Source: an uncultured virus (IMG/VR IMGVR_UViG_3300027884_000001)
Taxonomy: Duplodnaviria > Heunggongvirae > Uroviricota > Caudoviricetes
Length of the DNA stretch: 64,000 bases
Direction: 5' to 3' (one strand)
IMG/VR virus record: IMGVR_UViG_3300027884_000001
A program made the translations under genes and the position numbers. The notes below the pieces were generated by a model. That model made no database searches, was not told the origin of the DNA, and was given only the letters and a program-made list of their open reading frames with translations. Within the stretch, counting starts at the first letter, position 1, and each line of letters begins with the position of its first letter. This document shows positions 2,994 through 34,608 of the stretch, in pieces.

Positions 2994-4697
2994 ATGGCTG
3001 CCGCATTCGGTCTGCGCAGGTACGACGTCGGTCTCGGCGACGCCAGCATCGGCTACGACTGGGGCGTTGCTCGAGGCCGCGCCGCGGGCGTCAAGACGAC
3101 ACACGACGCGTACCCTGCAGGTGCGCCAGGAATCCGCCGGTCGCTCGAGGAGATGGCGCGTCTGATGCGGGAGGCGCGTCTGGATCCGGCCGTCAATGGC
3201 TACGCGGCGGACGTGCTCAAGGCTGCAGGGATCGACGGGCGCAACCGAGCCAAGTGGACCGCGTTCCAGGTCGCTCAGACGCTGCTCGACAACGTGCGCT
3301 CGGTGGTCATCTACAGCCCGGACGCGGCCGGCGCCGAGGTCATCACGAGCCCCGCGGGCCAGCTCTGTCTGCGACCGGGTCTCTGCATCCGCAAGGAAGA
3401 CTGCGACGGACTGAGCACCCTGCTCGGCGCGCTTCTGATGTGCGTCGGCTTCCGCGTGTGGATCGTCAAGCAGTCCTGGGGTCCCACGCAGCAGGAGCAC
3501 GTTCTCATCGCCGTCGAGGACGAGTCGGGCAAGAAGCTCAAGTGCGATCCGTCGCACGCGACGATGCCTGTGGGTAAGGGCGTGCCGGCGCAGTCCGAGA
3601 TCTTCGTCGATCCGCTCGACACGGTCGGCTCCATCGGCGTGTCCGGAGCCGAGATCGTGACGTTCGGGGCGCTGCCTGGTAGCGTGAGCGACATGCAGGG
3701 CCTCGGTAAGGGTGGCGGTGGTGGCGGCGGCCACGGGGGCGGCGGCGGGGGCTGGCACGGTGGTGGCGGTGGCGGCTGGCATGGCGGTGGGGGTGGTGGC
3801 GGGGGATGGCACGGGGGCCACGGCGGGGGTCCTGGCGTACGCACGTTCCACGGCGGTCAATGGTGGCTGTGGAACGATGGCGCCTGGATCGTAGACGTCG
3901 GTGGATGCACGTCCTGCCAGCAGTGGGGAAACCCCATCGCGCCCTCGAGCGCTCTCTTGGCGGACGCGCAGGCGCATCTGGCTGCCAGCGGTGGTTCGCC
4001 GATCAGCAACTGCTGGACCGATGGTGCGACGTACCTCTACACGAGCGAGAACAGCAACGTCGTCGTGCGGCGATGCGTCTCGACGCGCGCCCCGGGCGTG
4101 AGCGGTCTGGCGCGGCGAGGACAGATCAACGATCAGTTGGCGCCCGCGGGCGTCGGTGCGCTTGTGACGAGCGCTCAGATCCAGGTGGACATCCAGAACA
4201 CGTCGACGTTGATGGACGCGACAAACGTGGGCGTGCAGGCGTGCGCGGGTCTGGCGCAGTCGGACGTGCAGACGTGGGCGGGCATCTACGCGGCGTGGCA
4301 GCTGTGGCTCTCGGGCCTCAACGAGTGCGTCGCAGACTCGGTGCCGAGCATCCACACGGCCTGCGTGAACCCGCCGTACAGCTACACGCTGTCGGAGGAG
4401 TGGGCAGCGGCCGACGCGGGCCTGACGGGCTACCAAGCGACAGCAAGAACGTGGCAGGCCAAGATCAAGATGGCGTGCCCGAGCTATCAACCCACACCTC
4501 CGTTGCCGTCACCGATCGCTCCGCCTGCGCCAACAACCCCGACGTCGTGGGTCGACGACGCGAAAACAGTGGCTGGTCTCGTTGGAGGCACGGTCGGAGT
4601 GCTCGTGGTCGGCTACGGCGTCTACCGGGTCATCCAGTTCGCTGGCGACAAGGCCAATGCACGCGCGTCAGCAGCCAAGACGGTGAAGGCGGCGTGA
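2994..4697 (+). CDS. transglutaminase-like Cys protease domain protein with Gly/His-rich linker and C-terminal TM anchor
   Basis: EDCDGLSTLLGALL...EHVLIAV...KCDPS gives a Cys-His-Asp triad with transglutaminase-like spacing; C-terminal hydrophobic helix. Confidence 0.75.
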   Translation: MAAAFGLRRYDVGLGDASIGYDWGVARGRAAGVKTTHDAYPAGAPGIRRSLEEMARLMREARLDPAVNGYAADVLKAAGIDGRNRAKWTAFQVAQTLLDNVRSVVIYSPDAAGAEVITSPAGQLCLRPGLCIRKEDCDGLSTLLGALLMCVGFRVWIVKQSWGPTQQEHVLIAVEDESGKKLKCDPSHATMPVGKGVPAQSEIFVDPLDTVGSIGVSGAEIVTFGALPGSVSDMQGLGKGGGGGGGHGGGGGGWHGGGGGGWHGGGGGGGGWHGGHGGGPGVRTFHGGQWWLWNDGAWIVDVGGCTSCQQWGNPIAPSSALLADAQAHLAASGGSPISNCWTDGATYLYTSENSNVVVRRCVSTRAPGVSGLARRGQINDQLAPAGVGALVTSAQIQVDIQNTSTLMDATNVGVQACAGLAQSDVQTWAGIYAAWQLWLSGLNECVADSVPSIHTACVNPPYSYTLSEEWAAADAGLTGYQATARTWQAKIKMACPSYQPTPPLPSPIAPPAPTTPTSWVDDAKTVAGLVGGTVGVLVVGYGVYRVIQFAGDKANARASAAKTVKAA

Positions 4698-5221
4698 TGA
4701 GTCGCGCCCGCACACTCGGAGCCGCCGCGGACGACGTGTTCGCGCAGGCGCGCGTGGACTTGTCGAGCACTGTCGGCGCGCAGATCGTCGCTGGCGATAC
4801 GGCGCTCAACGCCGGACAGTACTCTTCGGCCGTCACGGCCTACCAGCAAGCGGGCCAGGTGGGCGCTACGGTCGTCGGACCGGAGATCGATGGCGTCGGT
4901 TACTCCAACGCCACGCAGGGCTACACGCAGCAGGCCTGGCAGCTCAATACGTCGCTCGCTGCGATTCCGGCGGCCAGCGCCACGCAGGCCAACGCGATCA
5001 CTGCGCAGGCTCTCGCGTACAAGATGCAGCAGCTGTACTTGAGCGGGATCGATGCTGGAGACCGAGCCGCGAATCCGCCGTCGAGCGCCTGGCCGGTCCT
5101 GATCACGCTGGCTGGGATCGGTGTCGCTGGCGGCGTCATCCTCGGCTTCATGGATCTGCATCACAAGAGGACGACGATGCGTGCATCGCGCGCGCCGACG
5201 CGTCGCTACTCGACCAGGTGA
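4697..5221 (+). CDS. C-terminally anchored membrane protein, paralog of a domain in 12765 ORF
   Basis: ATG overlaps upstream TGA; shares YTQQAW motif; TM helix plus basic tail. Confidence 0.7.
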   Translation: MSRARTLGAAADDVFAQARVDLSSTVGAQIVAGDTALNAGQYSSAVTAYQQAGQVGATVVGPEIDGVGYSNATQGYTQQAWQLNTSLAAIPAASATQANAITAQALAYKMQQLYLSGIDAGDRAANPPSSAWPVLITLAGIGVAGGVILGFMDLHHKRTTMRASRAPTRRYSTR

Positions 5222-5225
5222 CGAC

Positions 5226-5714
5226 GTGCTCGCAGCGTTCGGCGACGACGTAGGCTTCACGCTCGTAAGCGGCAAGCGCCGACGTGTGGATGCGCCACGA
5301 ACGGCGCTCATGTTCTTCGACGACGACGGCAAGTCGTGGCCGAGCTGCAGTCTTCTCATTGCACGCCTCCAGATGCGCGGTACGCGCCCAGCGACCGACG
5401 ATGAGATGAAAGGTTTGCCTGGGCAGTGGCTCGGCAAAAACTACGAAGGCGCGCGCAGTACGGTTGATCTTCCGCCGAAGTTGCTGAGCGACTGGACGCT
5501 CGTCGGATCGCTCGCGCGCATCTGGTACTTCAGGATCGGCGACTACGCTCCAGGCTTCTTCAAGCACGCATTCAACAAGCCGACAGGTCTACGCAGGCTC
5601 GTGTTCCTCGTGAAGGGCAAGCGCGAAGTCTTGCTGTACCAGAGGCGCTCAATGTTCCGCGTGGAGCTTGGAAAAGGCTGCACGATCACGCGTTCTGGGC
5701 TCGAAGTGCCGTGA
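5226..5714 (+). CDS. hypothetical protein
   Basis: In-frame GTG after AGGTGA; start uncertain. Confidence 0.55.
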   Translation: MLAAFGDDVGFTLVSGKRRRVDAPRTALMFFDDDGKSWPSCSLLIARLQMRGTRPATDDEMKGLPGQWLGKNYEGARSTVDLPPKLLSDWTLVGSLARIWYFRIGDYAPGFFKHAFNKPTGLRRLVFLVKGKREVLLYQRRSMFRVELGKGCTITRSGLEVP

Positions 5715-5746
5715 ATCCAGTCGTTCCGGCGATCGTCTAACGGGAC

Positions 5747-6418
5747 ATGAAGTGGGGACGCGTCGGTAGGCGGCCGAAGGATCTTCCGCTCGAAGAGCTT
5801 GCGAAATTGTACGAAGGCGGATGCAGCAAAGAAGAACTGGCCCTGCGCTACCGCACGAGTGCCGCTACCGTCGGCAACTACTTGCGCAAAGCGTGGAAGC
5901 TGTTCCCGCCGAGCGAATGGGGGCACATGGGTCAAGACTGGAGACCAGTCGTTGGTTACGAGCGCCTGTACGAAGTCTCCGAGTACGGTCTCGTCAGGTC
6001 TCTTGGACGCATTCGCTTCGTGCGTCGCTACGGCATGACCCGAAAGTACATGATCGTTCCGCTAACGCGCGACGGCGTCGCGACATCGATCTCGGTTCAC
6101 AAGATCGTGGCGGAAGCATTTCTGGGTCCGCGTCCGCTCGGTCACGAGATCAACCACAAGGACGGGAACACGTGCAACAACCACTGGAAGAACCTGGCGT
6201 ACGTGTCGCCAGAGGACAACATGGCGCATGCAACGTCGATGGGACTGATTCTGCGTGGTGAGAATCATCCACACGCGAGATTGAGGGAGATCGACGTCTG
6301 GGCGATGCGTACGCTCCGCGCGTGCGGATGGTCGCACGCAAAGATCTCCAAGGAATTCGGGATCGCAGAGAACTACGCGATGCAGATTACGTCGCGCAAA
6401 GCGTGGGCACACGTGTAG
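5747..6418 (+). CDS. NUMOD4/HNH homing endonuclease
   Basis: WRPVVGYERLYEVSEYGLVRS (NUMOD4) and VHKIVAEAFLG...INHKDGNTCNNHWKNL (HNH). Confidence 0.9.
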   Translation: MKWGRVGRRPKDLPLEELAKLYEGGCSKEELALRYRTSAATVGNYLRKAWKLFPPSEWGHMGQDWRPVVGYERLYEVSEYGLVRSLGRIRFVRRYGMTRKYMIVPLTRDGVATSISVHKIVAEAFLGPRPLGHEINHKDGNTCNNHWKNLAYVSPEDNMAHATSMGLILRGENHPHARLREIDVWAMRTLRACGWSHAKISKEFGIAENYAMQITSRKAWAHV

Positions 6419-6459
6419 AGCACTTGTGCAAGCTGGCTCATTGAGCGACACTGCTTCCG

Positions 6460-8316
6460 ATGGGCGTCAGCTACTTGGACATCTTGGCGAAGAACCGCGA
6501 CGACGCTCCTGAGCACGCCGCGACGCCCGTTTTGCACCACGGAAAACGCCGAAAAACAGCCAAGAAGAGGCGTTCAGCGAGCCGGCTGGCAAAATCGACC
6601 ACGAAACGCTTGACGAACCGCAAGCGCAAGCGTGAGAATGCACATCAGCGCAACGTTTCGGAACGAGGTGGATCACAAGGCAGAGCGACTCGACGGACGC
6701 GCACAAGGCGCGCACTCGGAACCGCAAAGCAAGGGATCCACAAGATGGCGACCAAGGCTCGTAGGAAGGCAGCACGGAAGGCAGCGCGTCGTTCACACGC
6801 GGCCAAGGAGACCACGCGTCGTCGCAAGCGCCGCAGCAGCGCAGCTGCCGAAGCGCCCAAGCGTCGCCGCCGCAGCTCCCGTCGTCGCGCGGCAGCAGCC
6901 GAGCCCAAGCGCCGCAAGCGCCGCAGCTCCAAGCGCCGTCGCCACAAGGTGAAGGCGCACTCGGTGCGTCGTCATCGGGTCCGCTCGCACATGAGCAACG
7001 AGACGCCGAAGAAGCGCCGTCGCTCGCGCAAGCGCCGCAGCAGCGGTCGTCGCCGCCTGTCGATGAAGAAGAGCGCGGTCGCCGCGCGTCGTCGTCGCCG
7101 GAGCCACGCCGCAGCAGCGGAGTCGCCCAAGAAGCGCCGTCGCAGCAGCCGCAAGCGCCGCAGTTCGGGTCGTCGTCACCGCGTGCGCGGGCACACGGTC
7201 CGTCGTCGTGGCCGCACGCACCGCGTGCGTGCTCATCTCAGCCGCGAGACACCGCGCAAGCGCCGCCGCAGCCGCCGTCGCAGCCGTAGGGCGATGACGC
7301 ATCACCGCTCGCACCGGCGCTACAGCCGCCGTCGCAGCGGAGCGATGGAGAACCCGCTGAGCGGCATGGAGATCGCGGTCGGCGCCGTCACCGGTGTCGT
7401 CGGCTTCATCTCCGCCGACGCTCTCGACCGCGTCCTGGCCACGCACGCTCTCGGAGCGAGCGCGTCCGGCGCGACCGGGTCGGATGGCAAGCCGCTCTAC
7501 GGCGACACCCCGACGACCACGGGCGCCTACGCGGGTCTGTACAACGCCACCGCCGTCCTCGCCCCCATGAACGGGTGGCGCTGGCTGGCGGGCGCAGGGA
7601 TCACCATCACGCCGTTCGTCATCGCTGCCTTCATCAAGAGCCCCGTGGGCCGCAGCTCGCTGCAGTTCTTCGGGTTCGGCGCTGGCGTTCGGATCCTCGG
7701 CAAGGCCGTCACCGACCTCATGGCCAAGTTCTTCGGTCGCACCAGCTGGGGCGCCCGGATGTACGACGGCGAGGCGCGCGCGGCTGCGCTCAAGAACGGC
7801 GGCGACACGTCGCTCTACCCGACGTCGGGTCTCGGCTCTTTGCCGACCGGCGTGGGAAGCGCGTGCAACTGCGCCAACTGCACCACCGGCGTCGGCTCCT
7901 GCTGCCGCTTGACGGGCAGCCAGGCGCTCCCTCCGCCCGCGGGCGTTCCGCAGGCGTCGGGTCAGCCGACCAACACCGTGACACCGACGCCGATGCCGGC
8001 TCTGCCGATGCCGTCGCCGATGCCCGTCATCCCGCCCGCGTCCTCGACGCCCGCGCCGATGCCGGTCCCCGTCACGGCACCGCCGGTGTTCACGATGCCG
8101 CCGGGTGGAATGCGGCCGCCGCTGTCCTACAGCCCGCAGCCGGCACCGCGCCAGCCCATCCAGGGCCGGTTCCAGAGTCCGCCCGTCTTCGCGCCGCCTC
8201 CGGGCAGCGTGCTTGCGGCCGGAACGCAGGGTCTGCCCGAGGGCGTGGGCGCACCGAACGGGGCTCGCAAGAGCGCGTACCACTGGGGGAGCGATTCGGA
8301 CAAGGCGGCCGAGTAA
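6460..8316 (+). CDS. Arg/Ser-rich protamine-like protein with TM segments and Pro-rich tail (putative DNA-condensing core protein)
   Basis: About 200 aa R/K/S/H-rich repeats, then hydrophobic segments, CNCANC..CC and Pro-rich tail; alternative start ATG 6745. Confidence 0.7.
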   Translation: MGVSYLDILAKNRDDAPEHAATPVLHHGKRRKTAKKRRSASRLAKSTTKRLTNRKRKRENAHQRNVSERGGSQGRATRRTRTRRALGTAKQGIHKMATKARRKAARKAARRSHAAKETTRRRKRRSSAAAEAPKRRRRSSRRRAAAAEPKRRKRRSSKRRRHKVKAHSVRRHRVRSHMSNETPKKRRRSRKRRSSGRRRLSMKKSAVAARRRRRSHAAAAESPKKRRRSSRKRRSSGRRHRVRGHTVRRRGRTHRVRAHLSRETPRKRRRSRRRSRRAMTHHRSHRRYSRRRSGAMENPLSGMEIAVGAVTGVVGFISADALDRVLATHALGASASGATGSDGKPLYGDTPTTTGAYAGLYNATAVLAPMNGWRWLAGAGITITPFVIAAFIKSPVGRSSLQFFGFGAGVRILGKAVTDLMAKFFGRTSWGARMYDGEARAAALKNGGDTSLYPTSGLGSLPTGVGSACNCANCTTGVGSCCRLTGSQALPPPAGVPQASGQPTNTVTPTPMPALPMPSPMPVIPPASSTPAPMPVPVTAPPVFTMPPGGMRPPLSYSPQPAPRQPIQGRFQSPPVFAPPPGSVLAAGTQGLPEGVGAPNGARKSAYHWGSDSDKAAE

Positions 8317-8483
8317 GGTCGTCGACGGAAGTGACGGGCACTGGGGCCCGCCCGCAAGGGCCCCATCGTTGTCAGCGCAACGAGTCGAGTAGGTAAGCAA
8401 CACCAGAGGATCGCGGTCTCAGTCGGCAACCCCCGTCGCAAGGGCCCTTAGGGCGTGCGCGGTCACCGAAAGAGAACACGACC

Positions 8484-9854
8484 ATGGCTACGAAGCAGAA
8501 CAAGTACAGGCTGATCGATCGGCCCACGCCGTCGCCGATGCGCACCATCGGTCTTGGCATGGCGCCCAACCACAGCAAGATCGCAGCGGGTCTCGCCGCC
8601 GGCACCCCGGGTGCAGGCATCGGCGCCCTCATTGACTGGGTCAAGGACTCGGTCAACTGCCCGATCTTCAACATGCCGACCATCGAGCAGGTTCGGTGGG
8701 GCATGGACGGCGCGCAGAGCGACGCGTCCGTGAAGAAGAACTTCGGCGCGGAGATCGACCTCTTCGGATCCGGCAAGGACCCGCAGGGCATCGACTACGT
8801 CGAGACGACGATGGCCCTCGCAGGCGAGACGCAGACGTACATGCTCGCGTGCGCCATCTTCTTCCACGTCGAGCCCGAGCCCCTGTGCTTCACGGCGTTC
8901 GGCAACAGCTGGCAGCCCCTGGGCGGCCCGACGACGGTGCAGGCGGCGGGCAACGTGCCCATCTCGCCCGACGTCTTCACGTTCAACGACTTCACCAACG
9001 GCGCGCTGGGCTCGGGCACCGCGACGGGGACCTTCTTCGGTCCCGCGGTGATGGAGCACGGCTGGTGGGCGAACTACGCCGCCTGGCACATGGTGCGCGG
9101 CTACAACATGCGCTGGAAGATCGGCCAGCACACCAACATCCTCGACGAGGTTCTCCGGCACACGGCGTACATGCCGACCAACGCGCAGGAGGGCTCGGCC
9201 TCCAACAGCGAGGTCGACATCGTCCAGTTCGTCAACCGGATGAACAACTACTACGTCGGCAAGGGCTCGACGCAGCAGTTCCTCAAGGTCAACCGCATCC
9301 GCATCGGATCGGTCCTCGGAACCGCAGGCACCAACCTCGGCATCTTCCGTCCGTCCAACGACGACATCCTCGTCGGTGCGACATACGGCGGCATGGACCT
9401 GCGGTCGCTCCTCAAAGGCAACAGCGAGTTCCGCAAGCTGACGCTGCCGTACGTGATCAAGCCGGGCGTCCCCATCGGTCTCGTCGCGCAGGCCAACGAC
9501 ACCGACCAGATCGACACGATGCAGGCGTACCTGTCGCTCACGCAGATCGGCAACCAGTACGGCGGCGGCGTCTTCCCGCCCGTCGTCACCGACACCCCCG
9601 CGGCGACCACGCCCTGGGACGGCACCAACGCGACGCCGGTGGGTCTCGAGCGCACGCTCGACGGCTTCAACGTCGCGCAGCAGGTCGGAACGGGTCGGTC
9701 GGTCTACAAGAGCGGCACGCTCAAGATCAGCCAGGGCATCAAGGGCTTCGAGGTGTCCGAGGATTGGTACACGATCCTCCAGAACAACCCGGATCTCAAG
9801 GAGCTGGTCATGGGCGAGTGCTCGATCCGCTTCGCCCAGCAGGGCGCGGGCTGA
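8484..9854 (+). CDS. putative major capsid protein (single jelly-roll-like, large)
   Basis: Strong C/G-ending codon bias, no TM helix; motifs ETTMALAGETQTYMLACAIFFHV, FRKLTLPYVIKPGVPIGL and KISQGIKGF recall vertical SJR capsid strands; ORF certain, fold inferred. Confidence 0.55.
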   Translation: MATKQNKYRLIDRPTPSPMRTIGLGMAPNHSKIAAGLAAGTPGAGIGALIDWVKDSVNCPIFNMPTIEQVRWGMDGAQSDASVKKNFGAEIDLFGSGKDPQGIDYVETTMALAGETQTYMLACAIFFHVEPEPLCFTAFGNSWQPLGGPTTVQAAGNVPISPDVFTFNDFTNGALGSGTATGTFFGPAVMEHGWWANYAAWHMVRGYNMRWKIGQHTNILDEVLRHTAYMPTNAQEGSASNSEVDIVQFVNRMNNYYVGKGSTQQFLKVNRIRIGSVLGTAGTNLGIFRPSNDDILVGATYGGMDLRSLLKGNSEFRKLTLPYVIKPGVPIGLVAQANDTDQIDTMQAYLSLTQIGNQYGGGVFPPVVTDTPAATTPWDGTNATPVGLERTLDGFNVAQQVGTGRSVYKSGTLKISQGIKGFEVSEDWYTILQNNPDLKELVMGECSIRFAQQGAG

Positions 9855-9891
9855 TCGGGGGCTGGAAGGGAAACGAGCCGAGGGCTAGCCC

Positions 9892-10671
9892 ATGAGCGAC
9901 AACGTCGTCAGCTTCAGCACCGAGCAGTTCGATCAGCTACTCGGTGTCTTGCAGCAGCGCGGTGGGGCGGCGCCGGGACCTGCGGGTCTCGGGGCCGACC
10001 CGTCCGCGGGTCTTGCAGGCGCTCCGCGCGTGCTGGGCCTGGGCTGCGGCGACGGAGGCATGGGCTCGCTCGCGGCCAGCGTCTACACGATGCTGGCCAT
10101 GGGCAGCCCGCGTCTTGCTCTGGCCAAGGCCAAGGGCATCCCGCTGGCGCCGTACATGATCAACGTGCGGGCCACGTTCCCAGACACGTCGACGTCGATC
10201 GTGCCGGACGTCGGCAGCGACGTGAAGATCACGCAGGACACGTTCATCGACTCGATGATCGTGCGCACGGAGAACCAGTCGGTCACGGCCAACCAGAACC
10301 AGTTCCAGGCCCAGAGCGACTTCTACTACGGCATCCAGAGCGGCATCGAAGTCACTCTCGACGTCCAGGGCGCGCCCCGCTACGCGGTGGCCCCCAAGTT
10401 CATGCCTGTGAGTAACCTCATGGACGCCATCAACGGCGGCGCGCATCGGGGCATGGGCTGGATCCTGACCTACCAGCAGCAGCTCTTCATGAGCTTCCAG
10501 GCCAAGGTCACGATTCCGACCGCTCCCATCGAGGTCATCTGCACGTTCAGCGGATGGGTCCCGGTGTGGGACGAGCTGGTCGCGATGACCAACCGCGAAG
10601 CCATCAAGCAGCTGCGTGAGGACTGCGGGTTCCAGATCGACGATTCGTACGCCAAGCGCTGCTGCCGGTGA
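9892..10671 (+). CDS. putative second capsid protein (single jelly-roll-like, small)
   Basis: Alternating beta strands: YMINVRATF, KITQDTFIDSM, IEVTLDV..RY, FMPVSNL, IEVICTFSGW; directly follows 8484 ORF. Confidence 0.55.
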   Translation: MSDNVVSFSTEQFDQLLGVLQQRGGAAPGPAGLGADPSAGLAGAPRVLGLGCGDGGMGSLAASVYTMLAMGSPRLALAKAKGIPLAPYMINVRATFPDTSTSIVPDVGSDVKITQDTFIDSMIVRTENQSVTANQNQFQAQSDFYYGIQSGIEVTLDVQGAPRYAVAPKFMPVSNLMDAINGGAHRGMGWILTYQQQLFMSFQAKVTIPTAPIEVICTFSGWVPVWDELVAMTNREAIKQLREDCGFQIDDSYAKRCCR

Positions 10672-10706
10672 GGGCTCGCGCGCGCGGCGCGTAAGGGCAA
10701 GGACCG

Positions 10707-11552
10707 ATGAGCGCGCGCAACAGACGCTGGGAGATCGCGACAACCGGATTCGACGAGTACCTGCAGCTACTCGGCGGCGATCCGTACAGCGCCAACGGCG
10801 CCTCGACCTCGGTCGGGCTGCGTGTGCCGACGCTGGCGACGCCCACGGTGGCCCTCGGCGGTCTCACGAGCCGCTACCTCTTCCTGCTGGCGAGCTTCTC
10901 GGTGCCCGAGGGCGGCCGGGTGCGTATTCGCGGCTACCGGCAGATGGTCACGATCGGCTACAAGCAGGTCGAGGGCGAGGGCGGGTCGGCAACCACGTAC
11001 ATCGTCGAGCAGCTCGTCACGAGCCCATTCTGGCGGTTCAACGACGGCAACATCAGCTGGCACATCCACCGCATCGGTTCGCCGAACGCGCAAGGCGTCC
11101 CGCAGGTACCTGGCAACGGACCGGCGGACATGTCGAGCTTCAAGCAGTACTGGGCGGACGGTCCAGCACTGCTTTACGGTCCGCCTGCTCCCGCTCGCCC
11201 CGCGGGCGACATCTACACGAACCTCGGGAGCTACGCGCCGCCAAATGCAGGCAAGCCGTACGGCCAGCCTGTCGCGAGCAAGCAAGGCACCTTCTACGAT
11301 CTCCGGTCGCCGTGGGAGACCGACCGCGCTTGGGACGCGCTCGACATTCCGATCGACGGTCCGGAGACCATCGGGTTTTTCGCGAGCGTGCGACAGACCA
11401 ACCCGTCGACGCGCGTCGCGCTCACGCCACCGAGCCCCACGTTCTACTCGGGCGGCCTGTCGGCCGAGGAGCAGTTCCTGCTCAACTTCCCTGGCGCGAT
11501 CTACTGGCGCGTCGCGGGCTCGCTCATCGTAGAAGAAGGCGAGACGCCGTAA
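10707..11552 (+). CDS. putative virion structural protein
   Basis: AAGGA RBS; beta-rich soluble protein in the structural operon. Confidence 0.6.
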   Translation: MSARNRRWEIATTGFDEYLQLLGGDPYSANGASTSVGLRVPTLATPTVALGGLTSRYLFLLASFSVPEGGRVRIRGYRQMVTIGYKQVEGEGGSATTYIVEQLVTSPFWRFNDGNISWHIHRIGSPNAQGVPQVPGNGPADMSSFKQYWADGPALLYGPPAPARPAGDIYTNLGSYAPPNAGKPYGQPVASKQGTFYDLRSPWETDRAWDALDIPIDGPETIGFFASVRQTNPSTRVALTPPSPTFYSGGLSAEEQFLLNFPGAIYWRVAGSLIVEEGETP

Positions 11553-29735: not shown

Positions 29736-29779
29736 CAATTCCTCTTGCAAGCACGAGCGAGCCATGTCAGGCTCGAATC

Positions 29780-29979
29780 CTACCGATGAGACTCTGGTCA
29801 GCCGCCACATCGATGATTCCGAGCAGGGCGCATAGCTCCTGCGTCGGGACCGATCCGGTGTATGCGCAGCCTGCATTCCAGACCAAGCGCAACTCGGAGG
29901 AAGGTACGTAGGGCGGCCAAGAGATCGACGAAAAAAGCGTCATCTAAGGCCGCTCGGAAGCGATTCCGAGGCGGCCTTT
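29780..29979 (+). ncRNA. candidate structured ncRNA with own promoter and terminator
   Basis: TTGCAA-17-CAGGCT upstream; nested pairings GCCGCC/GGCGGC and TCCGAG/CTCGGA; terminator hairpin at 3' end. Confidence 0.3.
29947..29979 (+). terminator. intrinsic terminator-like hairpin
   Basis: AGGCCGCTCGGAA-gcga-TTCCGAGGCGGCCTTT. Confidence 0.6.
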
Positions 29980-30008
29980 CTCGTCTAACCAGCATGGGAT
30001 CACGCGAC

Positions 30009-30091
30009 GGTGGGCGATTAGCAGCAGGGCAGCTGCGGCGGGTTGTAGCCCCGTTTCCTCTGGAGGAGCCGTTCGACTCGGCCGCCCATCA
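30009..30091 (+). tRNA. tRNA-Tyr(GUA), apparent 8/4 fold
   Basis: GGTGGGCG/CGCCCATC acceptor; loop TT-GTA-GC; long variable arm; 4-bp T stem. Confidence 0.75.
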
Positions 30092-30095
30092 CGAG

Positions 30096-30707
30096 GTGCA
30101 CGATGAAGCGGACCAAACAGGCGCGCACACGCCAGAAGGGAGCGTAACTCAATTGGCAGAGGCCGGGCTTTTACCCCGTCGCGATCTCGGTTCGACTCCG
30201 GGCGCTCCCACGAAGCGGTGCGGCAAGTGCGGCGATGATAAACTGTTCGATGAGTTCGCGAAGAACAAGAGAAAGAATGACGGACGACAGCAGTGGTGCA
30301 GAGCGTGCCATCACGCGCATCACGTCGACTATTACCCGAAGAACAAGAAGCGCTTCCGAGACTACGACCACGCTCTCAGAGAGCGTCTGCGCGCGATCGT
30401 TTTCGCGCATCTAATGACCAACGCTTGCGTTGATTGCGGTGAGAAGGATCCGATCGTTTTGGATTTCGATCATGTCCGAGGCGTGAAAGCGTTCAACATC
30501 GCGGTTGCTACCGCGAACGGAGCTGTGTCGACCCGAACGCTGATGGAAGAAATTAGCAAGTGTGAGATCCGCTGTGCCAACTGTCATCGTCGAAAAACAT
30601 CGGCTGAGGGATTTCATTGGAAGACGCAACGGGTCGCTAGCTCTAAGGCGGAGCAGCAGTCTCTTACACTGTCGGGCGCGGTTCGATTCCGCGGCGACCC
30701 ACACTGA
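30096..30707 (+). CDS. HNH endonuclease overlapping two tRNA-Lys genes
   Basis: CGKC...WCRAC...CVDCGE.D..VLDFDH...KCEIRCANCHR; start codon uncertain. Confidence 0.75.
   Translation: MHDEADQTGAHTPEGSVTQLAEAGLLPRRDLGSTPGAPTKRCGKCGDDKLFDEFAKNKRKNDGRQQWCRACHHAHHVDYYPKNKKRFRDYDHALRERLRAIVFAHLMTNACVDCGEKDPIVLDFDHVRGVKAFNIAVATANGAVSTRTLMEEISKCEIRCANCHRRKTSAEGFHWKTQRVASSKAEQQSLTLSGAVRFRGDPH
30138..30210 (+). tRNA. tRNA-Lys(UUU)
   Basis: GGGAGCG/CGCTCCC; loop CT-TTT-AC; TTCGACT T loop. Confidence 0.85.
30631..30701 (+). tRNA. tRNA-Lys(CUU)
   Basis: GGGTCGC/GCGACCC; loop CT-CTT-AC. Confidence 0.85.
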
Positions 30708-30781
30708 TCCGGTGTCGGCCAACGGTAGGCTAGCAGTCTCTGAAGCTGCGCATCTAGGTTCGATTCCTAGGACCGGAACCA
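30708..30781 (+). tRNA. tRNA-Gln(CUG)
   Basis: Canonical cloverleaf; loop CT-CTG-AA; encoded CCA. Confidence 0.9.
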
Positions 30782-30808
30782 CCGTCGCAAGACGGTCGCT
30801 CTTTGACA
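30781..30808 (+). promoter_or_regulatory. boxB-like hairpin plus boxA-like antitermination element
   Basis: ACCGTC-GCAA-GACGGT then CGCTCTTTGACA (rrn boxA consensus TGCTCTTTAACA). Confidence 0.6.
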
Positions 30809-30889
30809 TCCAGACGACACATGACGCGCACCCTCGGTGCGGGCGGTCTCTGTCGAGGTACGACGCGCGGGTCTGTACGACCGCGCCAT

Positions 30890-30961
30890 GGAGTCGAAGC
30901 TCAGTGGCCGAGCAGCGACCTGTTAGATCGACGGAAGTGGGTTCGATTCCCACCGACTCCG
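30890..30961 (+). tRNA. tRNA-Asn(GUU), weak anticodon stem
   Basis: GGAGTCG/CGACTCC; G73; loop CT-GTT-AG. Confidence 0.7.
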
Positions 30962-30967
30962 CAGCGT

Positions 30968-31039
30968 GCCGGATCGTCTCAAGGAGCAACATGGTTTCGT
31001 AGTCCGTGTAGGGCGGGGCGGTACCGCCATCCGGCTCCA
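30968..31039 (+). tRNA. atypical tRNA-Thr(CGU)
   Basis: GCCGGAT/ATCCGGC plus TCCA; T loop GGCGGTA; extended anticodon stem. Confidence 0.6.
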
Positions 31040-31042
31040 TAC

Positions 31043-31121
31043 GTCCCCATCGTCTACGCGCGGCTAGGACACCACCCTCTCACGGTGGGAAACGCGGGTT
31101 CAACTCCCCGTGGGGACGCCA
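31043..31121 (+). tRNA. tRNA-Glu(CUC)
   Basis: GTCCCCA/TGGGGAC; loop CT-CTC-AC; CCA. Confidence 0.9.
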
Positions 31122-31122
31122 C

Positions 31123-31195
31123 GGCGCCTTTTCTCCTGGTGGGGTGGTCGGTTTTTCACATCGACTGTGGCACGGTTCGAATCCGGCAGGCGTCA
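31123..31195 (+). tRNA. tRNA-Glu(UUC)
   Basis: GGCGCCT/AGGCGTC; loop TT-TTC-AC; bulged T stem. Confidence 0.7.
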
Positions 31196-31204
31196 CGAGG
31201 CAAC

Positions 31205-31280
31205 GCACCGAGAGCTAGTGTGGTCATAGCGCGCGGTTGAAGCCCGCGAGAACGTCGTTCGATCCGACGTCGGTGCGCCA
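31205..31280 (+). tRNA. tRNA-Phe(GAA)
   Basis: GCACCGA/TCGGTGC; loop TT-GAA-GC; CCA. Confidence 0.85.
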
Positions 31281-31350
31281 GAGGGAAGTGTTTTTGGTAG
31301 CACACTCCGTTCGGGCCGGAGTAGTGCGGGTTCGATTCCCGCTCCTCTGA
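31279..31350 (+). tRNA. tRNA-Pro(CGG)
   Basis: CAGAGGG/TCCTCTG; loop TT-CGG-GC; overlaps the CCA of tRNA-Phe. Confidence 0.85.
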
Positions 31351-31354
31351 CTAT

Positions 31355-31431
31355 GGCGTGCGTACTCGTTCGGTAACGAGGGTGCTCTGTGAAAGCACGG
31401 AAGCTCGGTTCGACTCCGGCCGCTCGCCCCA
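31355..31431 (+). tRNA. tRNA-His(GUG)
   Basis: G-1:C73; loop CT-GTG-AA; CCA. Confidence 0.85.
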
Positions 31432-31432
31432 T

Positions 31433-31511
31433 CTCCTCGTGCTGGTGGTCCAGCATCGCGTTTCCTAAACGCGAGCCTTGAGCAGACCGTGTTCGATCCA
31501 CGGCGAGGAGA
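31433..31511 (+). tRNA. tRNA-Arg(CCU) with enlarged variable region
   Basis: CTCCTCG/CGAGGAG; loop TT-CCT-AA. Confidence 0.75.
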
Positions 31512-31563
31512 CCGGGCACCCGGCGAGCGCGTGAGCGCGACGACCCGGGCCAGCCCTCAACTT

Positions 31564-31635
31564 GCCTCGTGATGCGACTGGCGTCGCAGTTCCACTGTCT
31601 ATGGAGTGAGAGCGGTTCAATTCCGCTACGAGGCG
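31564..31635 (+). tRNA. tRNA-Asp(GUC)
   Basis: GCCTCGT/ACGAGGC; G73; loop CT-GTC-TA. Confidence 0.85.
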
Positions 31636-31639
31636 CTAC

Positions 31640-31708
31640 GGGTCTGAGGCCATGGTGGCCAACCGGTTTCCAAGTCCGGAGGACAGCGTTCGATTCGCTG
31701 CGGGCCCG
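31640..31708 (+). tRNA. tRNA-Trp(CCA)
   Basis: GGGTCTG/CGGGCCC; G73; loop TT-CCA-AG. Confidence 0.75.
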
Positions 31709-31813
31709 CTACTTCAAGCCGACGATGGCAACGAAGGTTGCGAGCCAAGAAGCTGACGCGAGGAGCGAACGTGGCGCGATGATGCCGCGTGACAGACCGG
31801 AGAGACGGTCCAA

Positions 31814-31884
31814 GGGCCGGTCGTCCAACGCGAAGACACCGCTTTCGCACTGCGGAGATGGGGGTTGGATTCCCCCTCGGTCCA
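31814..31884 (+). tRNA. tRNA-Ala(CGC)
   Basis: G3:U70; loop TT-CGC-AC. Confidence 0.85.
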
Positions 31885-31889
31885 CTTTC

Positions 31890-31958
31890 GCCCGCGCTCC
31901 CCGGTGGGACGTCCTCGTTGGTATCGAGGTCGCTCGAGTTCGACTCTCGACGCGGGCT
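31890..31958 (+). tRNA. tRNA-Thr(GGU)
   Basis: GCCCGCG/CGCGGGC; loop TT-GGT-AT. Confidence 0.8.
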
Positions 31959-31963
31959 CTGTT

Positions 31964-32034
31964 GCCCGGCGAAGCTTCATGGTGAGGCGCTCGGTCTGTA
32001 CCCGAGACGTGCCGTTCGATTCGGACGCTGGGCT
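31964..32034 (+). tRNA. tRNA-Thr(UGU)
   Basis: GCCCGGC/GCTGGGC; loop TC-TGT-AC (C33). Confidence 0.7.
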
Positions 32035-32097
32035 CTGCCTCTTGTGATGCCTAGAAGTACCCGGTGCGCGACTGCTGCAGCAGCGTGGCACCGGCTT

Positions 32098-32168
32098 GCG
32101 ACCGCCGTCTGATGGTCAGACCTCAGGTTTCCACCCTGATGAAGCGTGTTCGATTCACGTCGGTCGCT
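32098..32168 (+). tRNA. tRNA-Gly(UCC)
   Basis: GCGACCG/CGGTCGC; U73; loop TT-TCC-AC. Confidence 0.85.
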
Positions 32169-32174
32169 CTGCTT

Positions 32175-32246
32175 GCGGGTGAGACGGCAAGGTGCCGTAC
32201 TTCGTCGCCAACGAAGCCCAGGCGCGTTCGATTCGCGTCACCCGCT
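32175..32246 (+). tRNA. tRNA-Gly(GCC)
   Basis: GCGGGTG/CACCCGC; U73; loop TC-GCC-AA (C33). Confidence 0.8.
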
Positions 32247-32248
32247 CC

Positions 32249-32368
32249 GGCGCTGCACCTGCGTCTAACAGGCGCGGGTGGCGAGACTCCGAAAGGGCTC
32301 GCCGGTGCACGCGTTGCGTCCGAAGGAGCGTGGAGCGGCCGCTCACGACGCGTGCACCGCTTACGCCG
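32249..32368 (+). ncRNA. candidate multi-stem structured RNA within the tRNA array
   Basis: Three hairpins, including a GAAA-capped stem and CGGTGCACGCGTTG/CGACGCGTGCACCG, closed by GGCG/CGCC. Confidence 0.4.
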
Positions 32369-32373
32369 ACTGT

Positions 32374-32445
32374 GAGCCCGAGTTCAAGCGGACGGGTGAG
32401 ATTGCAACCCTCACCGGGTCGGGGCGGTTCCGACCGGGCTCTCCA
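32374..32445 (+). tRNA. atypical tRNA-Cys(GCA)
   Basis: GAGCCCG/CGGGCTC plus U73 and CCA; loop TT-GCA-AC; T loop GGCGGTT. Confidence 0.65.
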
Positions 32446-32446
32446 T

Positions 32447-32517
32447 GCGCTCGTCCTGGCGGCTCCAGGCGTGGGACTTCTAAGCCCGTCGACTCGGTTC
32501 AACTCCGAGCGAGCGCA
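32447..32517 (+). tRNA. tRNA-Arg(UCU)
   Basis: GCGCTCG/CGAGCGC; loop CT-TCT-AA. Confidence 0.8.
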
Positions 32518-32518
32518 C

Positions 32519-32589
32519 CTCGCTGTTCTGGTGGATCCAGATCGCGGTTTCCGAAACCGCGCACCCGTGTTCGATTCACGGCAGCGAGG
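32519..32589 (+). tRNA. tRNA-Arg(CCG)
   Basis: CTCGCTG/CAGCGAG; loop TT-CCG-AA. Confidence 0.8.
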
Positions 32590-32636
32590 CCGACGGTTGG
32601 TTTGCATCGTTCGCGGTGCCGGCCTTCCGTCTCCAT

Positions 32637-32707
32637 GCCCCCGTCCTGACGGATTCAGGCGCAGGTCTACGAAGCCTGTTGTCTAGGTTCGACTCCTAGC
32701 GGGGGCG
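32637..32707 (+). tRNA. tRNA-Arg(ACG)
   Basis: GCCCCCG/CGGGGGC; loop CT-ACG-AA. Confidence 0.85.
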
Positions 32708-32708
32708 C

Positions 32709-32782
32709 CGCACGGATGGAGCAACGGTGGCTTGCCGCGCTCATAACGCGGACATCAGTCGGTTCAACTCCGACCCGTGCAA
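32709..32782 (+). tRNA. tRNA-Met(CAU), initiator-like
   Basis: C1:A72 mismatch; loop CT-CAT-AA; anticodon stem GCG/CGC instead of GGG/CCC. Confidence 0.8.
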
Positions 32783-32783
32783 A

Positions 32784-32852
32784 CGCAGCGACGTCAGGGA
32801 CGAGGCGGCCCTCATAAGGCTGACCGCAAGGGTTCGACTCCCTTCGCTGCGA
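32784..32852 (+). tRNA. tRNA-Met/Ile2(CAU)
   Basis: CGCAGCG/CGCTGCG; loop CT-CAT-AA. Confidence 0.75.
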
Positions 32853-32853
32853 C

Positions 32854-32921
32854 CCGAGGCTACCTGGCGGGAGCATGCGCCCCACACGCGCGCGCGAGGC
32901 GTTCGATTCGCCTGCCTCGGA
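32854..32921 (+). tRNA. degenerate tRNA-Val(CAC)
   Basis: CCGAGGC/GCCTCGG; loop CC-CAC-AC; poor D arm. Confidence 0.55.
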
Positions 32922-32922
32922 C

Positions 32923-32993
32923 TGGCGCGTGCGGCTGGTCGCTGCAGGACGCCTTATAGACGTCCGCTCTGGGTCCGATTCCCAGCGCGCCTA
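32923..32993 (+). tRNA. tRNA-Ile(UAU), atypical
   Basis: GGCGCG/CGCGCC with U1:U72; loop CT-TAT-AG closed by C.A. Confidence 0.6.
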
Positions 32994-32994
32994 C

Positions 32995-33066
32995 GCGCGA
33001 CTCGCCGTCTGGTGACGGCACCGGCTCGACAAGCCGGCGAGCGGGGTCCGATTCCCCGGTCGCGCA
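32995..33066 (+). tRNA. tRNA-Val(GAC)
   Basis: GCGCGAC/GTCGCGC; loop TC-GAC-AA (C33). Confidence 0.8.
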
Positions 33067-33077
33067 CGAAGTGAAAC

Positions 33078-33149
33078 GGGACTGGATGGTCCGGTTGACC
33101 GAAGCCGCCTGATAAGCGACTCGGCCGGGTTCGACTCCCGGCAGTCCCA
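33078..33149 (+). tRNA. tRNA-Ile(GAU)
   Basis: GGGACTG/CAGTCCC; loop CT-GAT-AA. Confidence 0.8.
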
Positions 33150-33162
33150 CAACCTCTGCTAC

Positions 33163-33723
33163 ATGGAGATCGTCATGGAACCGCGAACGCTCGTCTTGTC
33201 CCCTTGGATGGCCCCGAACCGCATAGCCACGTGGCAGCAGGCGATCGTGCTCGTGTACCTGAACAAGGTCGACGTGCTCGAGGAGTACGACGCCGAGGAG
33301 CACGCTCCGGCCTCGAGTGCGCGGTGGTCGATCAAGATCCCTGCGGTCCTGCGCATCCGCAAGACGATCGACATGCACAAGTCGAGCGTGAAGTTCTCGC
33401 GCTCGAACATGCTCGCTCGTGATGGCTCGAGGTGCTGCTACTGCCCGCCGAGCGTGGCGCGCAAGCCGGCCAAGGACCTCACCTACGACCACGTGCTGCC
33501 GCGTTGCCGCGGTGGCAAGACGTGCTGGGAGAACATCGTGATGGCGTGCCGTCCGTGCAACCGGCGCAAGGACAAGAAGACGCCGAAGGAAGCGGGCATG
33601 ACGATGCACTTCAAGCCGCACAAGCCAGCGTCGCTGGCTCTCACGGGTCCGCTTCTGATCGACACGAGCAAGATCCACCCGTTGTGGGTCCCGTACATGA
33701 CAGGCGCCGAAGCAACGGGCTAG
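33163..33723 (+). CDS. HNH endonuclease (McrA-like)
   Basis: TLVL...PAVLRI...FSRSNMLARDG.RCCYC...LTYDHVLPR.RGG...WENIVMACRPCNRRK; start may be ATG 33175. Confidence 0.9.
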   Translation: MEIVMEPRTLVLSPWMAPNRIATWQQAIVLVYLNKVDVLEEYDAEEHAPASSARWSIKIPAVLRIRKTIDMHKSSVKFSRSNMLARDGSRCCYCPPSVARKPAKDLTYDHVLPRCRGGKTCWENIVMACRPCNRRKDKKTPKEAGMTMHFKPHKPASLALTGPLLIDTSKIHPLWVPYMTGAEATG

Positions 33724-33731
33724 GCACCCAC

Positions 33732-33817
33732 GGCAGCTACTGCTGAATGGTCGGCAATCCGGTTCGAACCCGGAGGCGTGGCGATGAGTCACGGGCGTTC
33801 GATTCGTCTAGCTGCCG
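33732..33817 (+). tRNA. tRNA-Ser(CGA), 8/4-compatible fold
   Basis: GGCAGCTA/TAGCTGCC; G73; loop TT-CGA-AC; long variable arm. Confidence 0.85.
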
Positions 33818-33821
33818 CTAT

Positions 33822-33904
33822 GGAGAGTGAAGAGCGTGTGGACGCTCACTCGGTTGCTACCCGAGGAAGCTGAAAGGCTAGCGGTTCGACTCCGCCTCTC
33901 TCCG
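33822..33904 (+). tRNA. tRNA-Ser(GCU), 8/4 fold with 6-bp D stem
   Basis: GGAGAGTG/CTCTCTCC; GAGCGT-gtgg-ACGCTC D arm; loop TT-GCT-AC; 4-bp T stem. Confidence 0.85.
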
Positions 33905-34116
33905 CTACTTGCGCGTCGGCCTGAACCCAGCAGCCTCGTAGAAGCTCATCGCTGGCACGACTCCGCGACGCTGCCGCGGTCGGCCGTTGGTGTGCTGCCT
34001 CACCCAGCTGTAAGCCAAAACTCCATCACGCACGCGCGGCAGGCGATCGTACGCGAGCCGTAGACGCAACCGGTGGCAGGGTGGGCTGCGGGATCACCGC
34101 AGAAGTTGCAGTTCAT
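33905..34116 (-). pseudogene. small zinc-finger ORF, apparently frameshifted
   Basis: MNCNFC...CRAC..FW stops at 34000; protein-like WVRQHTNG...SFYEAAG continues in another frame. Confidence 0.35.
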
Positions 34117-34140
34117 GATGTGCCTCGCTTTCGATCTTTG

Positions 34141-34221
34141 TGCGCAGAAGAGGACTTGAACCTCCACGGTGCTACCCGCCACGGTCTGAACGTGGTGCGT
34201 CTGCCATTCCGCCACCTGCGC
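34141..34221 (-). tRNA. tRNA-Leu(CAG)
   Basis: Canonical Leu D arm GGCGGAATGGCAGACGC; loop TT-CAG-AC; long variable arm. Confidence 0.9.
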
Positions 34222-34240
34222 GTCGTTTCACTTCGTGTCG

Positions 34241-34321
34241 TGCGAACGAGAGGATTCGAACCTCCACGGTGCTACCCGCCAGCCCCTCAAGCTGGTGCGT
34301 CTGCCGTTCCGCCACGTTCGC
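34241..34321 (-). tRNA. tRNA-Leu(GAG)
   Basis: Near-duplicate of Leu(CAG); loop TT-GAG-GG. Confidence 0.9.
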
Positions 34322-34322
34322 G

Positions 34323-34393
34323 TCCGGGGAGCGGGGGTCGAACCCGCGTTCTGGGATCCAAAGGCCCATGTCCTACCGTTGGACGATCCCCGA
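34323..34393 (-). tRNA. tRNA-Gln(UUG)
   Basis: TCGGGGA/TCCCCGG; loop CT-TTG-GA. Confidence 0.85.
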
Positions 34394-34394
34394 G

Positions 34395-34469
34395 TGCACA
34401 GCCCGCGACTCGAACGCGGATACCGCTCGTTTTGAGCGAGCGAGGTCTGCCAATTGCTCTCAGCTGTGC
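34395..34469 (-). tRNA. tRNA-Leu(CAA) lacking long variable arm
   Basis: GCACAGC/GCTGTGC; loop CT-CAA-AA; 5-nt variable loop. Confidence 0.75.
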
Positions 34470-34608
34470 GTGTGTCGCGTGCCGATGCCAGCCTTAGCCT
34501 TGTTGGGCTAGGCGCCATCGGCAGACGAAGCAACAGCGAGCGGTTCACGACGGTGAAGATACCCCGCTTCTCGCCGGGCGCAAGCTCGTCGTGGTATCGA
34601 TCGATCAC

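Follow-up and report, generated by a model that had tools for sequence, protein, structure and literature searches.

An array of 35 tRNA genes was analyzed in the genome of an uncultured virus (IMG/VR IMGVR_UViG_3300027884_000001). The array lies in a stretch of 64,000 nucleotides (nt), hereafter the window, of the full 148,729-nt virus genome (G000). It is likely, with a probability of about 0.65, that the array is a back-up tRNA operon of the Polyangiaceae type, which a large tail-less virus carries and which is controlled by translation. The functional unit begins approximately 260 nt upstream of position 30009, where the preliminary description of the window had placed its start, with a leader at 29745-29982. 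Related arrays were compared from two related viruses, G310 (locus L232) and G312 (locus L234), from the Polyangiaceae genome G009, and from cellular long tRNA arrays of the Polyangiaceae type such as L159 and L161.

With default settings, ARAGORN revealed 29 tRNA genes within 30016-34469, no tRNA gene outside the array across the whole 148,729-nt genome, and none in 30 shuffled copies of the array. A lowered threshold added Arg-TCT, His, Thr-TGT, and Gly-GCC, which raised the number to 33. Anticodon-anchored parsing added Cys-GCA (32374-32442) and Thr-CGT (30968-31036), the latter assigned through synteny with relatives and the acceptor features G1-C72, C2-G71, and U73. The final set consists of 31 genes on the plus strand and 4 on the minus strand in 4.46 kb, with 34 anticodons for all 20 amino acids, and the approximate count in the preliminary description proved to be exact. 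Its statement that most genes lack an encoded CCA also holds; CCA is encoded in 6 of the 35 genes (Gln-CTG, Thr-CGT, Glu-CTC, Phe, His, and Cys). The 2-nt overlap reported there between Phe and Pro is real, but it touches only the last two letters of the CCA encoded by Phe (N73 of Phe at 31277, start of Pro at 31279).

The leader includes four elements on the plus strand. A promoter-like site at 29745-29773 (-35 at 29745, 17-nt spacer, -10 at 29768) was recognized by regular expression and by eye, and similar sites were seen by eye ahead of the leaders in L232, L234, and L150. An open reading frame (ORF) of 41 codons at 29786-29911 encodes all 20 amino acids with 33 different codons, while the means of two null models were 15.8 and 16.0 amino acids (p = 0.003 and 0.0025). 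A putative antiterminator strand at 29911-29918 adjoins the stop codon of this ORF, and it can form 8 base pairs with the 5' arm of a terminator-like hairpin at 29946-29982 (-22.8 kcal/mol). In the folding model, the naked leader RNA folds as the antiterminator (-42.3), and when the RNA is masked to 12 nt beyond the stop codon, the terminator is formed. The leader is probably a whiB7-type attenuator, which would free a back-up tRNA set when translation stalls.

The geometry of this putative switch is conserved in both viral and cellular arrays. Of 80 sequences, 18 contain the hairpin, which in 17 of them precedes a tRNA gene by 10-413 nt; among the 55 loci that have no more than two tRNAs, it is present in just 1. 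The stop codon lies within -1 to +10 of the pairing strand in 16 of the 18 leaders, and several pair types are seen at variable columns. Viral leaders hold 20, 19, 17, 20, and 20 amino-acid types. A blind motif scan of viral contigs revealed 9 loci, 4 of which head tRNA arrays. Three of these 4 have leaders of 42-56 codons with all 20 amino acids, all 4 have a boxA-like site after the Gln gene, and none has the capsid family of this virus. A soil variant turns U.G into C-G in both alternative helices (position 29954; one contig, depth 4). In the window, a hairpin is followed by a boxA-like site (30782-30808, with the site at 30798-30808) that matches 10 of 11 letters of GYTCTTTAANA, and a comparable site is found early in related arrays. 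The consensus is that of PMC5725501, not a myxobacterial rrn boxA.

The tRNAs deviate from conventional ones. By the same script parse, U8 is found in 17, A14 in 17, U33 in 31, and TTC in 30 of the 35 array genes, versus 30, 30, 28, and 30 of 30 housekeeping tRNAs of G009 (those parsed out of 54 matches). C33 is seen in 4 of the 35 genes and T-loops other than TTC in 5. The same deviations are present in all 14 related arrays scored, and thus are a family trait; they are milder in Myxococcus phage Mx1. Mismatches occupy 3.9% of stem positions in the array, versus 0.6% in housekeeping tRNAs, and since the other arrays show 1.4-4.5%, the window array is inside the range of the family.

On the question of pseudo-tRNAs, which the preliminary description raised, the Rfam RF00005 gathering score is reached by only 13 of 35 genes, but 95% of changed stem pairs are kept in comparison with the syntenic array of the distant relative G310. 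Among 521 stem pairs in 32 orthologous genes, 303 are unchanged, 186 are kept through two-sided change, 22 are kept through one-sided change, and 10 are broken (208 of 218 changed pairs kept). Random placement gives 24% (maximum 36%), and four other arrays give 94-97%. A stem-site identity of 61% with 3.9% mismatches does not fit neutral decay. The comparison demonstrates that the tRNA genes are aberrant yet not decayed, with their pairing evidently under selection. Scored by tRNA identity rules, the acceptor elements are mostly as expected, with G3.U70 in Ala, G-1/C73 in His, U73 in Gly, Cys, and Thr, and C1xA72 in the initiator.

Several individual genes are unusual. The tRNA-Ile at 32923-32993 has a UAU anticodon, as in G310, while AUA represents 0.05% of viral codons; tRNA-Ile with this anticodon is rare among bacteria. 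The tRNA-Leu(CAA) at 34395-34469 has no long variable arm, and short-armed Leu genes are seen in L166 and Mx1 as well. Thr-CGT and Cys share an unusual G-rich T-loop and similar T-stems, which suggests conversion or duplication of one T-arm. In the cellular arrays L161 and L159, C33 takes the place of U33 in the majority of genes (U33 kept in 8 of 19 and 7 of 16). At 5646-5715 of L234, a Gly-type body (G1-C72, U73) has a UCA anticodon and is called as SeC by ARAGORN; it is possibly a UGA suppressor or a sequencing error. Of 18 anticodon loops of the window array that could be paired with a G009 housekeeping counterpart, 14 are different, and this is in line with the nuclease-escape hypothesis (PMC10264068).

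The array is kin to chromosomal tRNA operons of Polyangiaceae, as indicated by the same HNH family, the same opening gene order, and the boxA-like site. The HNH_5 protein at 33163-33723 (plus strand) belongs to a family embedded in Polyangiaceae long tRNA arrays, has its nearest relatives in Polyangiaceae, and is 52% identical to the G009 copy. Among the loci with a relative of this protein, 16 of 73 from genomes and 5 of 6 from viruses hold 9-40 tRNAs, and 14 of the 16 are titled as Myxococcota lineages. Many cellular arrays start with (Tyr)-Lys-Lys-Gln-Asn-Thr, the same order as in the window, and identity to the G009 array is 74% over the Phe-Pro stretch (E-value 2e-25). The G009 genome bin also holds a capsid homologue from the same clade as this virus. 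Among 39 ORFs scanned next to cellular arrays, Ro60/TROVE was found in 6 arrays, EF-Tu in 1, and RtcB beside 1, in surroundings of ordinary cellular genes. YrlA RNA was found in L161, and an extra EF-Tu gene lies inside the array L159 (3061-4296). The viral arrays are distributed over G000, G310, G312, and unrelated large viruses in a patchy, horizontally spread manner. No array was found in the 11 smaller relatives searched (38-78 kb), and the carriers are larger (105-149 kb).

The array starts on the plus strand with tRNA-Tyr(GTA) (30009-30091) and tRNA-Lys(TTT) (30138-30210), followed by tRNA-Lys(CTT) (30631-30701) and tRNA-Gln(CTG) (30708-30778). Between Tyr and Lys-TTT, a 14-codon ORF with a Shine-Dalgarno-like site (30103-30147), putatively another translated element besides the leader ORF, runs into the Lys gene; comparable mini-ORFs were seen by eye ahead of the first Lys gene in L232, L234, L160, L166, and L172. 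An HNH endonuclease ORF of uncertain start (30213-30707; PHROGs phrog_2255, E-value 2e-29) is placed between the two Lys genes and is not present at this position in G310. Its frame (29862-30707) is open from an ATG in the leader through the terminator, Tyr, and Lys-TTT, and ends inside or after Lys-CTT; thus, it would be translatable only from unprocessed read-through RNA.

The next block contains Asn (starting at 30890), Thr-CGT (30968), Glu-CTC (31043), Glu-TTC (31123), Phe (31205), Pro-CGG (31279), His (31356), Arg-CCT (31433), Asp (31564), Trp (31640), Ala-CGC (31814), Thr-GGT (31890), Thr-TGT (31964), Gly-TCC (32098), and Gly-GCC (32175), and ends at 32246. A structured non-tRNA spacer (32248-32365, fold z -2.48), which has no database match and is absent from G310, separates it from Cys (32374), Arg-TCT (32447), Arg-CCG (32519), Arg-ACG (32637), an initiator-like Met with C1xA72 (32709), Met (32784), Val-CAC (32854), Ile-TAT (32923), Val-GAC (32995), and Ile-GAT (33078), the block ending at 33149. 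The HNH_5 gene is followed by tRNA-Ser(CGA) (33732-33817) and tRNA-Ser(GCT) (33822-33904). The convergent minus-strand block (34141-34469) encodes Leu-CAA, Gln-TTG, Leu-GAG, and Leu-CAG. These are more canonical tRNAs, with U8, A14, U33, and TTC in 4 of 4 genes. A promoter-like site for this block was recognized by eye at 34556-34583 on the minus strand (-35 at 34583, -10 at 34561), and inspection by eye revealed no attenuator ahead of it. A similar minus block is present in G310, where an apparent insertion element that carries a transposase-like ORF interrupts it (L232 8000-12000, by eye).

In the proposed mechanism, host RNA polymerase would start upstream of the leader ORF. When all codons are read briskly, ribosomes would reach the stop codon and cover the antiterminator strand, the terminator would fold, and the plus-strand array would be kept low. 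When any charged tRNA is missing, owing to host anticodon nucleases, starvation, or late-infection load, an early stall would allow the antiterminator to form. The boxA-like site would help polymerase cross 4 kb of largely untranslated transcript, from which 31 tRNAs would be released by host RNase P, 3' trimming, and the CCA-adding enzyme; the altered loops of these tRNAs may protect them from nucleases. The minus-strand block of four tRNAs is probably transcribed from its own promoter. By standard wobble, the tRNAs of the array would decode 89.8% of the 38,677 viral codons. The unserved 10% consists of Ala GCC/GCT/GCA, Pro CCY/CCA, Ser TCY/TCA, GTA, CTA, and TTA, so the array would top up the host pool and not fully replace it.

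A wider proposal is offered tentatively, at odds somewhat below even. One family of long tRNA operons would extend across Polyangiaceae chromosomes, jumbo phages, and large tail-less viruses of a group not yet described. The all-amino-acid leader attenuator and boxA antitermination would let the virus sense host attack on tRNA and answer with chargeable, nuclease-resistant tRNAs that lack U8/A14 and in some cases have C33. It would represent a sensing counter-defence borrowed from the host's translation-stress operon.

Several points weigh against a translation-gated back-up operon. Consensus and terminator scans called neither the promoter nor the terminator of the window leader, the promoter-like site being below the threshold of the consensus scan, and the U-tract is imperfect here while it is perfect in L232, L193, L236, and L237. 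The duplex alone was reached by 49 of 300 shuffles in the window and is thus not significant by itself, whereas its combination with an adjacent stop codon, reached by 5 of 300, is significant. In L232 and L171 the register was not recognized by the script, and 4 of the 18 leaders have no suitable ORF under the rule. Cellular leaders hold 12-19 amino-acid types, mostly no different from chance. The covariation test behind the kept pairs is partly circular, because both gene sets were parsed for best pairing. Four genes are doubtful: Thr-CGT and Cys, whose T-loops lack TTC or A58 and differ from the G310 and G312 orthologues; the initiator Met, with a flipped C30-G40 as the middle G-C pair; and Asp, with U37. 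The loop comparison uses G009 as a proxy host only. Transcription, switching, processing, charging, nuclease escape, and the host are all inferred.

Other explanations were weighed. The RNAs may mainly serve to divert anticodon nucleases or Ro60/RNA-repair complexes, as decoys or sponges, with many being poor decoders. The absence of U8 and A14 from roughly half of the genes, the C33 residues, and the aberrant T-loops would suit such a role, as would Ro60 and YrlA co-encoded in cellular arrays, and PMC8421152 raises the sponge idea and reports cleavage of operonic tRNAs. The isotype-specific acceptor elements are kept, however, one gene per anticodon suits decoding better, and in the long array (L-array) of Anabaena 23 of 26 tRNAs are charged and on polysomes (PMC8421152); a decoy role is unlikely, though the least so among the alternatives. 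Also unlikely is a constitutive or late supply by a virus that itself destroys or exhausts host tRNA, with the leader vestigial or level-setting. This is close to the strong host tRNA depletion that the preliminary description had read from the array; the genes and the all-20 set on which it drew are confirmed, but it overlooked the putative leader switch. The near-complete set speaks for such a supply, as does the restriction to larger genomes, which is expected if demand tracks genome size. The leader geometry and full amino-acid composition kept in viruses argue against it, as do the absence of a candidate viral RNase in Pfam scans of the virus proteins and the lack of service for GCC, which ranks tenth in viral codon usage.

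A cassette that spreads selfishly through its HNH genes, has little net effect on the virus, and has begun to decay would account for the two HNH genes inside the array, for the excess of stem mismatches over housekeeping tRNAs, and for a patchy distribution in which near-synteny of the G310 array goes with a capsid identity of only 33% for G310/G312; a precedent, T4 SegB, is cited in PMC8421152. This is rather improbable given the kept stem pairs at 61% identity, mismatches within the range of other arrays, and the conserved leader. The chance that a cellular array was joined to a viral contig by misassembly is very slight. The array is closely related to chromosomal ones and no compared contig spans the whole stretch, but two other viruses of the same capsid family carry syntenic arrays, the contig closes into a circle, and no Ro60 or cellular flanks are found at the viral array.

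The carrier of this putative translation-gated operon is apparently a tail-less soil virus, and its host is presumably a myxobacterium. A capsid-like trio of genes (8484-11552, plus strand; 456, 259, and 281 amino acids) is conserved in it and includes an adjacent pair of jelly-roll-like proteins, with the 456-amino-acid protein weakly matched. Six-frame searches of the genome with PF03237 and PF05876 for the terminase large subunit were empty, and Walker A motifs were found in the genome only in MoxR and DnaB. Within the sensitivity of the profiles, HK97 capsid, portal, and tail core proteins gave no Pfam match in 206 proteins and no PHROG match in 53, the exceptions being collagen-repeat "tail fibre" matches and a partial-domain match in L005:6734-7936. 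The FtsK-HerA/A32 packaging ATPase is a hallmark of Varidnaviria and Singelaviria; a motif scan of the conserved module in 8 genomes revealed no P-loop gene common to them. A conserved virion module with GroES and a JAB-domain protein extends over 2994-11552 of the window and 133262-144600 of the full genome. The region 6460-7345 of the window is very rich in Arg and Lys, and its product is possibly a DNA-condensing protein. Collagen fibres, likely glycosylated surface fibres, are encoded beside glycosyltransferase, methyltransferase, and radical-SAM genes (74730-84831 of the full genome; 27997-29460 and 41835-46004 of the window). A CRISPR array with a Cas12f/TnpB-like gene is located at approximately 88500-94500 of the full genome (L002), and G310 has a homologue of the protein.

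Why viruses carry tRNAs has long been an open question between codon compensation and defence evasion. A leader that senses the shortage of any charged tRNA would make it testable with one reporter, and it argues for conditional rescue. The array would tie viral arrays to identifiable chromosomal operons and suggests that Polyangiaceae are the hosts of a virus group not described so far. If the assignment is true, the literature searched holds no earlier case of a full tRNA array in a bacterial virus without a tail. It also indicates that tRNAs without the near-universal U8-A14 pair persist under selection and that standard annotation undercounts them, as with Rfam here.

The carrier resembles vertical jelly-roll viruses (Singelaviria and the Portogloboviridae member SPV1) in its adjacent jelly-roll-like proteins, many membrane proteins, and lack of head-tail genes. 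It is unlike them in its far larger genome, the weakly matched 456-amino-acid protein, and the packaging ATPase, which was not found. A literature search, with subscription literature and bioRxiv supplements outside its scope, retrieved neither a description of an attenuator-gated tRNA array nor one of this virus group. The whiB7 upstream ORF attenuator (PMC10274678) is similar in its long, amino-acid-diverse ORF, with a terminator if it is translated and an antiterminator if ribosomes stall. The window leader differs in that it would govern tRNA genes and not a transcription factor, is not alanine-rich, and shows no sequence relation. The rrn-type boxA antitermination (PMC5725501) likewise has a hairpin upstream and serves long untranslated RNA, while the boxA-like site here sits in a tRNA array, after the fourth gene.

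The trn operon of Anabaena PCC 7120, induced after translational stress, is likewise long, non-periodic, and supernumerary and contains an HNH gene, and for bacterial L-arrays, whose cellular relatives are linked to RtcB/Ro60, a stress-inducible role is proposed (PMC8421152). The window array shares mostly single-copy isoacceptors, an HNH gene, and patchy spread with them; an embedded HNH gene is conserved in Mycobacterium avium arrays, too (PMC12803027). It also falls within the viral tRNA gene clusters defined by Morgado and Vicente (a minimum of 15 tRNA genes and a density of at least 2 per kb). Clusters of 15-37 tRNAs are reported in 228 of 13,200 viral genomes, 8 of the 228 with all 20 isotypes (PMC6409571), and phage clusters, including that of Mx1, similarly have HNH genes inside and altered anticodon loops (PMC6409571, PMC10264068). 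According to PMC6409571, the surveyed clusters belong nearly all to tailed viruses and one to a eukaryotic giant virus, with no similar bacterial region; what is new here is the apparently tail-less carrier and the clear chromosomal counterparts of its array.

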